NCBI GenBank assembly: GCA_973851085.1
Contig: OZ316775.1
Span: 11,160,001 to 11,224,000, forward strand
Direction of reading: 5' to 3'
DNA: 64,000 nucleotides
From: Ptychomitrium polyphyllum
Taxonomy: Eukaryota
In this document: positions 4,447 through 32,422 of the stretch, one piece after another
How the letters are laid out: every line of letters starts with the position of its first letter
Numbering within the stretch: position 1 is the first letter of the stretch
Made by a program: the position numbers and the translations under genes
Notes under the pieces: model-generated
Databases searched by the model: none
Told to the model about the DNA's origin: nothing
What the model saw: the letters and a program-made list of their open reading frames with translations, nothing else

Positions 4447-5139
4447 TCATGAGCGATGGGTGTAGCATTTCTTGGTCATCACCTGCCCAGGACGACCAGA
4501 TGTAGGCGCCGACGTCGAAATTTCACATGTAGTCTTCACACCGAACCCAAAAGACCTGTAGCCCCCAATCCTAACCCTAGCCCTAACATCGACATAAACC
4601 TCGAAGTCGAGGCTACCACTCTGAATGTCACCCTGCAGGGCATTGGCTACGAGAAACGATACCGGCACGCTCATGGCCTTCACCTCTGTCCCCACAAATG
4701 TAACATTCGACTTTTCTTGGATGAACCCTGGCAATATTGCCCTCCCGAACACAGCCGTCGCATACGCAACTCTCATGTCAATCCGCTCGTAGACGACCTC
4801 CATGTGTCTGTTAAGATTACAACTCTTCAGCTTGACCACAATGTCGGCGTTCAAGAGATATGTCGTGATACCCCAGTTTTTGGTGGTTTCCACTTCCGCC
4901 AGAAGCCGTCGCGTTGTGGTCGATTGAATGTTGATCGTCACGACCTTCACGTCGTCCACCTCCCATGCGGGTGAGTGAATGGGTCGCAGCACAAGCCACA
5001 CAATGAAAGCTATCAAGCCCAGCACGATCAGCAAGATCACCAAAAATGACCCCACCAAGACGAGCATCCGCCTTATGGCATGCTTCCTCCGGTGTCGCTC
5101 CTCATTGTACTCAGGGTTCACCTTGTACACCTCCCCCAT
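4447..5139 (-). CDS. NDR1/HIN1-like (LEA_2 domain) membrane protein, intronless
   Basis: N-terminal TM helix (LVLVGSFLVILLIVLGLIAFIVWLVLRP), NLNRHMEVVYE motif, LPGFIQ, and C-terminal CEIS..KKC, all typical of NHL proteins. ATG placed at 5139. Confidence 0.85.
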   Translation of the reverse strand: MGEVYKVNPEYNEERHRRKHAIRRMLVLVGSFLVILLIVLGLIAFIVWLVLRPIHSPAWEVDDVKVVTINIQSTTTRRLLAEVETTKNWGITTYLLNADIVVKLKSCNLNRHMEVVYERIDMRVAYATAVFGRAILPGFIQEKSNVTFVGTEVKAMSVPVSFLVANALQGDIQSGSLDFEVYVDVRARVRIGGYRSFGFGVKTTCEISTSAPTSGRPGQVMTKKCYTHRS

Positions 5140-27958: not shown

Positions 27959-28020
27959 TTAGGGTTTCGGTGTATTGAGACGACTCTCCAGTTCTGCAAC
28001 GGCGCCAGGATTAGGGTTTG
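27959..28020 (+). promoter_or_regulatory. Telo-boxes (TTAGGGTTT) upstream of the snoRNA cluster
   Basis: TTAGGGTTT at ~27959 and ~28011 at the AT-to-GC transition. Telo-boxes are typical of plant ribosome-biogenesis and snoRNA promoters. Confidence 0.55.
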
Positions 28021-28572
28021 GCGCTCGCAGCCGCTGGCGAGCACTCTCTTCTCTACTTATTGTGCTCCCCACCAAGTCTTCCTCAAGTATTCTCTTCTAG
28101 TTCCCGGTTGGGGGCTTTTCTTCCCCTCTAGGTTTATGACACATGCAACTCTGTCTTTCCTGTTTTTCTATCAGCTCATTGGCCTCCGGTATCTGGTGCG
28201 GTGAGCATGCTTCGCTATGTAACGACCCCCACCTCGTAAGCGTGGCCTATATGGATCGTTTCAGGCGCGACGTGGGTTGGGTTGTCCCTCTGCCATTACT
28301 TATGTCCTGAGCATATTCTAATCTCCTTCTGAACTTGAGCGTAGTTGGTGTCTTCTTACAGCGGTTTTTCTTATTTCTAGGGTTGTTGTTGCGTTTCTGG
28401 AGGTGCTTTTAGGGTTGTTTCTTCTGGCCGAGGATGGTTACCTCTATGGGCGCAGTTGTGGGCGGTGCTGGGACCTTGTTTGACAAGGAGAACCTCCTCA
28501 GTATGCCGCCTGCATTTCTGTGACGCGAAACTGTAAACTGAGGCCTTATGATATCTGAGAACGTTATGTGAA

Positions 28573-28655
28573 CGAAGCCGGTGATGAAGATTATATCCGA
28601 AAACTTCTGATTCCTTTGATGTTTAACATATCACCATCTTTCGACTGAGGCTTCG
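28573..28655 (+). ncRNA. Box C/D snoRNA, U51/snR39-like (25S Am807-equivalent), copy 1
   Basis: Terminal stem CGAAGCC/GGCTTCG, C box GTGATGA at 28581, D' CTGA at 28607, C' TGATGT, D CTGA at 28645. Guide TCACCATCTTTCG is complementary to conserved 25S CGAAAGAUGGUGA. Confidence 0.85.
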
Positions 28656-28782
28656 GGTTCTATATTGATGAGTGGTTTTCGTCGTCGGTGTAGAATGCTG
28701 GTGGAGATAAATTTCAGAGAACTTCTCTGAAATACTTGCCCTAGTCTTTCTATACTGGAGTTTTTCGTTACTATAAGTTTGA

Positions 28783-29027
28783 TGACGGGAGTAACATCCT
28801 TGGCGGGGTGTTGCTCTGACATTGTGGAGCGACCATCTGCATCCCTGTGATGCGCTTGTGGTCGTAGAGTCTTTTGTTAACGTCAAAGAATGATGTGGTC
28901 ATTCGATGTTGTTTTTCAGTCTTCGGACCGAGGAATATATTGGATGATTCAGAGTTGCATATTCCATTGCCCTAGGGAGCAGCATCGCTGCAATTACTCT
29001 TTGGGACAGACCATGCCACTGACAGCT
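28783..29027 (+). ncRNA. Long box H/ACA snoRNA, candidate U17/snR30 homologue, copy 1
   Basis: 5' domain closed by TGACG/CGTCA, H box AAAGAA 28885-28890. 3' hairpin has an internal loop with m1-like ATATTCCA (28959-28966) and m2-like AGACCAT (29008-29014). ACA at 29022-29024 lies exactly 7 nt after m2. Confidence 0.75.
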
Positions 29028-29091
29028 TTGTACACCAAAGTGTTGCGATTGCCCTCTGCCTAGACAGACTCTTGCTCAACCAAACTGTAAG

Positions 29092-29180
29092 GAGACCAAT
29101 GATTACAACTCATCAAAATACCATCTTTCGGATCGTATACACCTTCGGGTGATGACGATTTTGTTACGTATGATGGTCTT
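29092..29180 (+). ncRNA. Probable box C/D snoRNA with degenerate boxes (snoR39BY/snR39B-like?)
   Basis: Terminal stem GAGACCA/TGGTCTT, C-like ATGATTA, C' GTGATGA at 29149, D-like ATGA. Antisense ACCATCTTTCGG matches 25S CCGAAAGAUGGU. Confidence 0.5.
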
Positions 29181-29210
29181 CAGATATGGTTTCCTAGTTG
29201 TATTTCTCAT

Positions 29211-29349
29211 GTCCTGTACAAAAAGCAGAGGTTATTGATAAGCCATGAGCTGATCTCTCGTCAGTTACAGGTATACTATATGCACCATCTTTAGGTGGTG
29301 AGCCACTGCCTTTCTGATGGCAAGGGGTTCAATCCATGGTGCTACACAT
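29211..29349 (+). ncRNA. U65: Box H/ACA snoRNA U65/snR34-like (two 25S pseudouridines)
   Basis: Hairpin 1 CCTGTA..TACAGG, H box ATACTA at 29273, hairpin 2 GCACCAT..ATGGTGC, ACA at 29344. Pockets CAAAAAGC/CGTC and GGTG/CAATCC bracket 25S GACG-Psi-U-GCUUUUUG and GGAUUG-Psi-U-CACC, each 14 nt from its box. Confidence 0.85.
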
Positions 29350-29372
29350 TTACGTCTTTCAGCATGTGCTTG

Positions 29373-29452
29373 GAGCCGATGATGAAGACAATATCCGAAA
29401 ACTTCTGATTTCTTTGATGTTTAACATATCACCATCTTTCGACTGAGGCCTC
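29373..29452 (+). ncRNA. Box C/D snoRNA, U51/snR39-like, copy 2
   Basis: Near-identical to 28573-28655: ATGATGA at 29379, D CTGA at 29443, same guide. Confidence 0.85.
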
Positions 29453-29474
29453 TTAATTTGTCTAGGAACTATTT

Positions 29475-29562
29475 GGCGAAGGCTGTGTGATGATAAAATA
29501 CATAGACCTGTTCTGAAACTGTATGTTGAACAAACATGCACTACCAACTGACAGCCTTCGCC
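29475..29562 (+). ncRNA. Dual-guide box C/D snoRNA (18S Gm1428-equivalent via D', 18S Um1269-equivalent via D; U25/snR56-like plus U33/snR55-like)
   Basis: Long terminal stem GGCGAAGGCTG/CAGCCTTCGCC, C box GTGATGA at 29487, D' CTGA at 29513, D CTGA at 29548. Guides CATAGACCTGTT (vs 18S AACAGGUCUGUG) and CATGCACTACCA (vs 18S UGGUGGUGCAUG). Confidence 0.88.
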
Positions 29563-29590
29563 CGGTCTTCGGAAATTTTATGTCAACAAC

Positions 29591-29843
29591 GACGGGGGTG
29601 GTATCCTTGGCGGGATTCTACTCTAACTGTGTGGAGCGACTATTCGCATCCTTGTGATGCACTTGTGGTCGTAGAGTCCATTGTAAACGTCACAGAACGA
29701 CGGTCTCACATGAGGAAGCTTTTGTTCATACGTGAGCGAAGGAATATTCATGTGAAAGCGAGGTTGCATATTCCATCGCCCTGGAGAGCAGCGTCGCTGC
29801 CATTACTCTTTGGGACAGACCATGCCACTTTTATGAGACAGTG
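29591..29843 (+). ncRNA. Candidate U17/snR30 homologue, copy 2 (3' box displaced)
   Basis: Paralogue of 28783-29027: H box ACAGAA at 29692, ATATTCCA at 29768, AGACCAT at 29817. No ACA at +7; the nearest ACA is at 29838. Confidence 0.6.
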
Positions 29844-29857
29844 CTTCCAAGAGTAAT

Positions 29858-29943
29858 GAGAAATGATGAGCATTCATATCCGTTACCACTCTGAAAGATT
29901 ACATGTGGACGAACTATCAAACCATGGCTGTGGTTCTGATCTC
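29858..29943 (+). ncRNA. Box C/D snoRNA
   Basis: Stem GAGA/TCTC, C box ATGATGA at 29863, D' CTGA at 29891, D CTGA at 29936. Guides CCGTTACCAC (vs 18S GUGGUAACGG) and TGGCTGTGGTT (vs 25S AACCACAGCCA). Confidence 0.82.
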
Positions 29944-30956
29944 TACTCTTTGATATGAACTTGTGTTTTAAAATTTGATCACAGATCTACCATCGCTGAA
30001 AGGGGATGCGGACGGAACATTATACCCGGCTGTGGTTCCGGTCTGATGTCGGCTAAATGTTTTCAAATTCTGGTGACGGGAAACATTATATACATCAAGT
30101 GATTTACTTATAAGAACGTAAAAGCCTTAGTTCATGTTCCCCCAGGACATTATAGTTTTCTTTTCGTCTTAGCCACGAAGTTACACACCAATGAAGGTTC
30201 ATCAAAGTTCATTCTGTATACACTCAAAGCAATCGGCATAGCTTACCATCAATCTGAACCGTACTTTGGAACACGAAAATTTTACATTTCTACTTTGCTC
30301 ATAAAAATATAGTGAGATGTTGATAATTACCTGGTGGGAACTTACGAATGTAGTCGCACATTCTACGAAGGTAAAAGGAAATACATGTCGAATTAAGATC
30401 GACATTCCAATTCAATCTTGTATTGAAAAATAGACAGACATCAGTAATACTTTTCTTCTTGGACCTTGTAAACCATTCGACTTAGAATCTGGACTGTCTA
30501 CTTCGGCGAGAACCTAGGCTATTCTCAATGTCTTTGACAACTGCAACTGAGCACGGAAACACTGTCTGCCACCTGTATATTACATTGTGGTACCTATATT
30601 GAATGGTGGAAGGCACCTCTATAGGACACTGGTGCCATGTTGTTTGTAACATAGTACGTTTGAAATATATATTGTGCTAAATATATGCAAAATTATTATG
30701 AAACCTTAATTTAATTGTTGAATGAAACCCTCCATATACCTCCTAATTTTCAAAAGCACGTCCTAGTAACAGGTCACTTATTTAGCCTATTTGATCAAAT
30801 AACCTCTTAGATTTAGCCTATAGACTTAGTCAATTTTACATTTAAACTTCATTTTTGACTTAATACACAAAAGTTCCCAGTATACTCTGATTGGGTGACT
30901 CGGTTGGAATAACACTTTTGTACCGTTTGGTGTGAGTTTATACCTTCAAGAGAGAG

Positions 30957-31116
30957 ACGGTGATGAACAAGCATCGGCAAGAATCAGCACGGTGATGAAC
31001 AAGCATCGGCAAGAATCAGCACGGTGATGAACAAGCATCGGCAAGAATCAGCACGGTGATGAACAAGCATCGGCAAGAATCAGCACGGTGATGAACAAGC
31101 ATCGGCAAGAATCAGC
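30957..31116. repeat. Perfect 32-bp minisatellite x5 (ACGGTGATGAACAAGCATCGGCAAGAATCAGC)
   Basis: Five identical head-to-tail units with no spacers. Confidence 0.97.
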
Positions 31117-31368
31117 ATGTTAAAACTGACGGAGTTTTCTAAATCCATTGAAATTTCAAATTGATTAAGATCTCTAAAGCAATGAAGACTTTTAAGTTAC
31201 AAGAGGTTGACTCAGGAATAAGGAGCAACTCAAACAGAAGAGGGAGTGCAAACCTTTTTTAGCAATCTGCAATGAGCAGACCACCAAGAGCACAACAAAA
31301 CGAAAACCAGACCACACTACCCTCATGAGGCGCGCGAATAATTGTACAAGGCAGCTCCATGTACAGTA

Positions 31369-31442
31369 TGCTTCCACTGAGAGTTGAACTCAGGACCTCC
31401 CGCTTACTAAACGGGTGCTCTAGCCAACTGAGCTATAGAAGC
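31369..31442 (-). tRNA. tRNA-Thr(AGT)
   Basis: GCTTCTATAGCTCAGTTGGCTAGAGCA-CCCGT TT AGT AA GCGGG-AGGTCCTGAGTTCAACTCTCAGTGGAAGCA folds as a full cloverleaf. Confidence 0.93.
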
Positions 31443-32350: not shown

Positions 32351-32422
32351 AGGTCCCACCGAGATTCGAACTCGGGTATTTGGATTCAAAGTCCAAAGTC
32401 GTAACCACTGGACCATGGGACC
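32351..32422 (-). tRNA. tRNA-Gln(TTG)
   Basis: GGTCCCATGGTCCAGTGGTTACGACT-TTGGA CT TTG AA TCCAA-ATACCCGAGTTCGAATCTCGGTGGGACCT. Confidence 0.93.

Follow-up and report, generated by a model that had tools for sequence, protein, structure and literature searches.

Is the plus-strand unit at positions 28783–29027 of this moss DNA a land-plant U17/snR30, the H/ACA snoRNA of 18S processing? Among the H/ACA RNAs of yeast, U17/snR30 alone is essential. According to a 2021 review, snR30/U17 had escaped identification in Arabidopsis, and plants may rely on a different route (PMC8351944); the first-pass annotation of this DNA knew of no well-established plant member. A 2020 table of 14 U17/snR30 RNAs contains no plant, and all 14 carry the m2 motif AAACCAU (PMC7601244, in part; "in part" marks sources of which a portion of the text was available). 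The open literature that we searched held no report of a plant U17/snR30; subscription papers were outside this scope, so an earlier report is possible. We analysed 64,000 nucleotides of Ptychomitrium polyphyllum (contig OZ316775.1), here called the window. Our conclusion, drawn from sequence, is that 28783–29027 is very probably a real moss U17/snR30 that would chaperone 18S maturation rather than guide pseudouridylation, because it combines boxes, motifs and spacing like those of U17/snR30 with m1 and m2 elements complementary to expansion segment 6 (ES6) of the moss's own 18S. The orthology that the first-pass annotation had proposed thus gains support from motifs, spacing and own-18S complementarity.

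The intact unit (copy 1) was complete for every feature tested, and is laid out as follows.

28783–29027 (+), U17/snR30-type box H/ACA snoRNA gene (candidate), intact copy 1, about 245 nt, predicted ends
28784–28884 (+), 5′ domain, with a predicted 4-bp closing stem (28784–28787 with 28881–28884)
28788–28817 (+), predicted hairpin 1 of the 5′ domain
28793–28804 (+), 12-nt exact antisense to seed-plant 18S 951–962, in hairpin 1
28829–28865 (+), predicted hairpin 2 of the 5′ domain
28885–28890 (+), H box AAAGAA, fitting ANANNA
28894–28951 (+), predicted internal hairpin, which folds in both copies
28959–28967 (+), m1 ATATTCCAT (RNA AUAUUCCAU), predicted partner 18S rm1
28971–29005 (+), upper stem of the 3′ hairpin, with a 6-nt bulge
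29008–29014 (+), m2 AGACCAT (AGACCAU), predicted partner 18S rm2 UGGUCU
29022–29024 (+), ACA box, 7 nt past m2

The H box and the extra internal sequence that had been noted earlier were both recovered, the latter as the predicted internal hairpin. The layout of the 5′ domain matches the Rfam SNORA73 consensus and human U17. Elements m1 and m2 occupy the two opposing strands at the pocket base of the 3′ hairpin, where the lower stem is taken from the model. Of the two stems previously described for this hairpin, the lower one holds at six of seven pairs and contains one U–C mismatch, and the upper one is rich in G–U pairs.

One element of the internal hairpin deserves mention in its own right. 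The letters GGAAUAU, which repeat the rm1 site of the rRNA, occur at 28933–28939 and 29742–29748, identical in both copies of the gene; they lie 20 nt before m1, in an internal hairpin that is otherwise 44% identical. RNAalifold pairs this element with m1, and such pairing could shield m1 before the rRNA arrives.

A second copy was found 807–809 nt downstream, which agrees with the duplicate previously placed about 800 bp away.

29590–29840 (+), copy 2, retaining H box, m1 and m2
29692–29697 (+), H box ACAGAA, in register with copy 1
29768–29776 (+), m1
29817–29823 (+), m2

The spacing of m2 to ACA distinguished the copies. An ACA box 7 nt from m2, which the first-pass annotation gave as established for yeast snR30 and vertebrate U17 and which accords with published work (PMC2664660, in part), is present in copy 1, whereas copy 2 has TTA (UUA) at +7 (29831–29833) and its next ACA at +14; the claim that ACA follows m2 by exactly 7 nt therefore holds for the first copy and fails for the second. 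Copy 2 is likely a weakened or decaying duplicate. The copies agree at 62/68 positions of the 3′ hairpin and 82/101 of the 5′ domain; the internal part agrees at 28/64, despite which each copy folds a long hairpin there. We also compared both copies with a U17-type model that runs from two 5′ hairpins within a closing stem through the H box, the internal hairpin and the 3′ hairpin to ACA. All 48 pairs were valid in both copies, and the nine that vary were all still paired; this count is partly circular, because most helices derive from a consensus fold computed on the same pair of sequences, and the covariation rests on one species. Contrary to the earlier description, the unit is not strictly free of open reading frames: frames of 57 codons (+) and of 43 and 63 codons (−) overlap copy 1 and are absent from copy 2. 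Since the overlapping frames are short and differ between the copies, a protein-coding reading was rejected.

We scanned 28740–29060 (321 nt) against Rfam and obtained three matches at E ≤ 10. The best was SNORA73 (RF00045), with 18.9 bits and an E-value of 0.0096 against a gathering threshold of 74; the suggested check against the U17/SNORA73 model thus named the expected family at a score too low for us to place the candidate in the Rfam SNORA73 entry. The alignment extends across the complete 3′ hairpin and takes in bulge letters beyond m1 and m2, where CAAUUACU is aligned to the SNORA73 consensus CAAUGACU. Fold z-scores against shuffles were −2.7 and −3.4 for the two copies. Unconstrained minimum-energy folds of both copies showed no U17-type lower stem in the 3′ hairpin, which counts mildly against the U17 reading.

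Motif frequencies were compared with simulated and shuffled controls. The full motif (m1, m2, seven nucleotides, ACA) occurred once in the window and gave one match in 150 simulated 64-kb windows; m1 followed by m2 alone occurred twice in the window and matched 25 times in the 150 simulations. When shuffled m1/m2 pairs were set against 5,410 nt of seed-plant rRNA at an ES6-like spacing of 25–50 nt, none of 300 reached 14 Watson-Crick pairs, and 15/300 succeeded at the looser bar of 12. The collections that we searched for other plant copies, which hold almost no plant nuclear DNA, yielded none. A pattern scan of metagenomes returned 18 matches, none with the U17-type hairpin by eye, none (0/18) assigned to a snoRNA family at E ≤ 0.5 and none fitting model R1; because the pattern fixed the GCAU/AUGC stem letters, true homologs may escape it. 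Eight matches to the snoRNA pattern in viral contigs likewise did not fit model R1, nor did any of five bacterial assemblies with plant rDNA contamination.

The decisive check was the pairing of m1 and m2 with ES6 of the species' own 18S, which the first-pass annotation had suggested, and this complementarity was found. The 18S came from two runs (X1 and X2) of one sample holding this DNA, neither recorded as RNA, and was placed on a seed-plant 18S reference locus. One contig dominated, with a depth of 6086 in X1 (all others ≤45) and 25,000 in X2, and from this depth we infer that it is the moss's own 18S. It differs from the seed-plant reference at 1242 (C>T), which yields an rm2 of UGGUCU, and at the variable position of rm1 it carries the A required by m1 and then AUAAC, the first letters of a loose end. 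The rm1 letters upstream of this A appear unchanged, as judged from an end-to-end alignment with two unplaced differences. The UGGUCU that the first-pass annotation had named for bryophyte ES6 is therefore present.

With this rm2, m2 (AGACCA) forms six of six Watson-Crick pairs, and the predicted binding energy was −7.0 kcal/mol for the moss's own site, −4.5 for an rm2 of the fungal/animal type and −1.9 for one of the seed-plant type. Because the own rm2 reads UGGUCU, m2 regains Watson-Crick pairing through its A-to-G change, which would be compensatory, as had been suggested. As far as these sequences can tell, the sole departure from the universal m2 is mirrored by one change in the moss's own rRNA. 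Element m1 pairs at eight of eight positions with the rm1 deduced for the moss. By eye, the loose end of the dominant contig contains an 8-bp hairpin between rm1 and rm2, a fitting arrangement because a three-way junction needs one. For comparison we collected 58 loci from eukaryotic contaminants of bacterial assemblies, of which 46 passed an 18S filter and 12 were dropped. The moss's rm1/rm2 combination was found in none of the 46, which fell into the types GGAAUA/UGGUU (21 loci), GGGAUA/UGGCC (21, the seed-plant type), GGGAUA/UGGUU (3) and GGGAUA/UGGAU (1). A further 18S search flagged one of 120 loci, which was not 18S, and gave no Rfam match for another six loci. As a separate observation, eukaryotic rDNA contigs are common in GTDB bacterial assemblies and are often of seed-plant type.

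The antisense element of hairpin 1 suggests a possible third 18S contact, which we offer as a lead only, as seed-plant 18S was used for it. Of the 31 loci that cover its target (18S 951–962), 29 show the identical sequence there, and copy 2 keeps 9 nt of exact antisense plus wobble pairs. Shuffled sequences gave a 12-nt antisense in 141/3000 cases anywhere in rRNA and in 8/3000 cases within 18S 780–1100, a region picked after the fact.

We compared the moss RNA with vertebrate U17/E1 (SNORA73, RF00045), yeast snR30 and the U17 RNAs of S. pombe, Tetrahymena and Trypanosoma. It resembles them in where m1 and m2 sit, at the foot of the 3′ pocket, in the 7 nt between m2 and ACA, in its 6–8 bp of complementarity to rm1 and rm2 of ES6, and in size (PMC7601244 and PMC2664660, both in part); like human U17, it has two 5′ stems and an internal hairpin, here predicted. 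It differs from the 14 tabulated members in an m2 of AGACCAU rather than AAACCAU (PMC7601244, in part), from U17/snR30 generally in an m1 that ends in CCAU and would lengthen the rm1 helix, and from these intron-borne or single genes in its placement in a polycistronic cluster. Yeast and vertebrate members make lineage-specific extra rRNA contacts (PMC7601244, in part); unlike vertebrate rRCSIII, the extra 5′ antisense element of the moss would target another 18S site, allowing for numbering offsets.

The cluster in question is a run of snoRNA genes on the plus strand, 28427–29943, recognised in the window by Rfam matches. Copy 1 sits inside this moss polycistronic snoRNA cluster with at least six other same-strand snoRNA genes for company, and the two copies occupy its two largest gaps. 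Among the neighbours listed here, 28573–28655 alone exceeds its Rfam gathering threshold.

27960–28019 (+), pair of telo-boxes preceding the cluster, out of 12 in the window
28573–28655 (+), C/D snoRNA of snoZ196/R39/U51 type (25S Am816 site), above gathering
29093–29179 (+), SNORD96/snoR39BY-like C/D snoRNA, the next gene 3′ of copy 1 (25.2 bits, gathering 43)
29219–29349 (+), snoR74-like H/ACA snoRNA (30 bits, gathering 44)
29371–29453 (+), second snoZ196/U51-type copy, below gathering
29480–29557 (+), SNORD33/U33-like C/D snoRNA (43.6 bits, gathering 44)
29858–29943 (+), C/D snoRNA 3′ of copy 2 with weak snoR21b and snoR16 scores and an 11-nt antisense to 25S 2362–2372

The gene at 29093–29179 carries a 12-nt guide for the 25S Gm814 site, and its boxes are degenerate. 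Telo-boxes act at plant snoRNA promoters, and the pair at 27960–28019 likely marks the promoter region of the cluster.

Several further features were seen in and around this run. At its head, 28427–28544 is a weak snoZ278-like C/D RNA (18.4 bits), and between the U51-type RNA and copy 1 lies a C/D-like stretch (28675–28735) without an Rfam match, with a 9-nt antisense to 18S 1726–1734 beside a CUGA. By eye, the D′ guide of 29858–29943 fits the 5′ region of 18S near position 345; a 10-nt repeat of the first guide of the same gene occurs 100 nt downstream (30028–30037). Upstream of the cluster, 28238–28362 (GTAAG...TTACAG) looks by eye like an intron spliced from a non-coding host transcript. 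Downstream, 30957–31118 holds five perfect 32-nt tandem copies, each with the C-box-like word GUGAUGA, and tRNA genes lie at 31369–31442 (−) and 32351–32422 (−), 1.4 and 2.4 kb 3′ of the cluster. Elsewhere in the window, the open reading frame 4450–5136 (−) has its nearest named relative in Ceratodon purpureus (77%; 7 matches among 477 candidates).

A mechanism can be sketched from these data and from yeast. The RNA would be excised from a polycistronic snoRNA precursor and loaded with Cbf5-Nop10-Nhp2-Gar1 at the H box and at ACA. At the base of the 3′ pocket, m1 would pair with rm1 (up to 8 bp) and m2 with rm2 (6 bp), and the intervening rRNA hairpin would complete a three-way junction; hairpin 1 may supply a third contact, to the platform region. 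In yeast, 18S production needs the m1/rm1 and m2/rm2 pairing, in dependence on ACA spacing (PMC2664660, in part), and the snR30 particle keeps ES6 and the platform, with Utp23, Krr1 and Kri1, off the Cbf5 active site (PMC12095548, in part). By analogy, the moss RNA, expressed from its cluster and acting like yeast snR30, would keep both ES6 and the platform accessible to Utp23, Krr1 and Kri1, and its release would then permit the early cleavages that yield 18S.

We sought a seed-plant counterpart in the literature. AtsnoR158a and b (Ath-143) are cloned orphan H/ACA RNAs of 226 nt, visible on northern blots, that stand in the Arabidopsis clusters snoR158a/snoR39BYa/snoR21a/snoR149 and snoR158b/snoR39BY/snoR21b (PMC2875012, in part). 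The cluster affected in hid1 comprises HID1 with SnoR39BYa, SnoR21.1 and SnoR149 (PMC8053127, in part), and Araport11 annotates HID1 as a snoRNA (PMC9388643). From these matching cluster members we deduce that HID1 (AT2G35747) is AtsnoR158a. HID1 reportedly has four stem-loops, the last of which is essential. Reviews describe HID1 as 236 nt long, with Physcomitrium homologs and 'snoRNA-like domains' (PMC10226578 and PMC4563214, both in part).

The moss gene resembles AtsnoR158/HID1 in size (226–236 nt there), in H/ACA class and in having two copies. The neighbourhood is also alike: the orphan RNA lies directly 5′ of snoR39BY in both Arabidopsis clusters, and copy 1 precedes a snoR39BY-like gene that, while below Rfam gathering, carries the guide for the snoR39BY site. 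The target G of that gene is 2 nt from the target A of the U51-type RNA, as are G814 and A816 in a published table (PMC8053127, in part). The published 24-nt 5′ primer of snoR158 matched 14/24 at 28774, at the 5′ end of copy 1, a match that is weak alone. It was the best of about 1,600 cluster offsets, and 0.06% of window offsets reach 14/24; it covers UGACG of the closing stem, and differs in having no in-register match over the first 5 nt of the moss 18S antisense element. Against the link, the gene 3′ of copy 2 is unconvincing as snoR21: we dropped the snoR21b label for 29858–29943 as synteny evidence, at 16.7 bits and an E-value of 0.53 and with a different guide. By size, AtsnoR159 (225 nt, orphan H/ACA) is another candidate. 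The HID1/snoR158 sequence was absent from the parts of the supplements of PMC7464842, PMC2875012, PMC8053127, PMC5122169 and PMC8351944 that were searched, and the 'snoR158a' of PMC5122169 (in part) was set aside as an unrelated rice C/D RNA and not AtsnoR158.

From size, class, copy number, gene order and the 5′ primer match, we lean towards the view that HID1, as the orphan snoR158, is the land-plant U17/snR30. We hold with similarly modest confidence a joint reading in which HID1 is the land-plant U17/snR30 and its pocket motifs covary with plant ES6 (seed plants being predicted to have m2 AGGCCA and m1 UAUCCC or UAUUCC), hid1 survives because it still has snoR158b, and the phenotypes reflect partly a shortage of 40S subunits or a core ribosome chaperone that gained a chromatin role. 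One measurement in hid1 found snoRNA levels, normalised to 18S, increased by 24% and 31% (PMC8053127, in part); this rise would look like the effect of reduced 18S, and its authors interpret it otherwise.

Unlike our reading of the moss gene, HID1 is published as a chromatin-acting lncRNA, and the moss RNA could be a U17 derivative whose main job in land plants has shifted to chromatin or light signalling, with the 18S pairing a side role or a relic. In favour of this, reviews available in part report that HID1 binds the PIF3 promoter as well as ATXR7 and that homologs exist in Physcomitrium; HID1 and the moss RNA are probably orthologues, and U17 was believed absent from Arabidopsis (PMC8351944). 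We nevertheless judge a shifted role unlikely, since a relic is not expected to follow the rm2 change of its own 18S, and the ACA spacing and the 3′ hairpin are retained; it can also be compatible with a moss U17/snR30.

An ordinary pseudouridylation guide is somewhat less probable still. The moss RNA shares with canonical guides its H and ACA boxes and a 3′ hairpin pocket whose top is about 16 nt from ACA, and the best fit of that pocket places 11 pairs (9 Watson-Crick) around a uridine near position 122 of seed-plant 18S. However, 43/300 shuffled guides did equally well in the 3′ pocket on the 5,410 nt of seed-plant rRNA, leaving no canonical target above chance. Its length and four-hairpin layout are atypical of guides, and its complementarity lies in the basal pocket, with two sites 36 nt apart in inverted order. 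Least probable of all is a coincidental motif or a pair of silent pseudogenes in cluster spacer, for which the missing ACA at +7 in copy 2 and the weak Rfam score could speak, and against which stand the single occurrence of the composite motif in 150 simulated windows, the low fold z-scores, the intactness of copy 1 in all tested features and the specific match to the own 18S.

Taken as a moss U17/snR30, this RNA likely means that the plant member counted as missing in the literature has been found. A land-plant U17/snR30 would remove an apparent plant exception, the gap stated in PMC8351944. We suggest that the plant RNA was overlooked because the docking sites in plant rRNA changed and the supposedly invariant m2 changed along with them, and the reading yields an exact motif prediction for seed plants. 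The moss gene may be equivalent to the Arabidopsis 'light-signalling lncRNA' HID1. If HID1/snoR158 is orthologous, an existing mutant gives an immediate test, and a much-cited conserved light-signalling lncRNA, studied for a decade, would need re-reading as a ribosome-assembly snoRNA.
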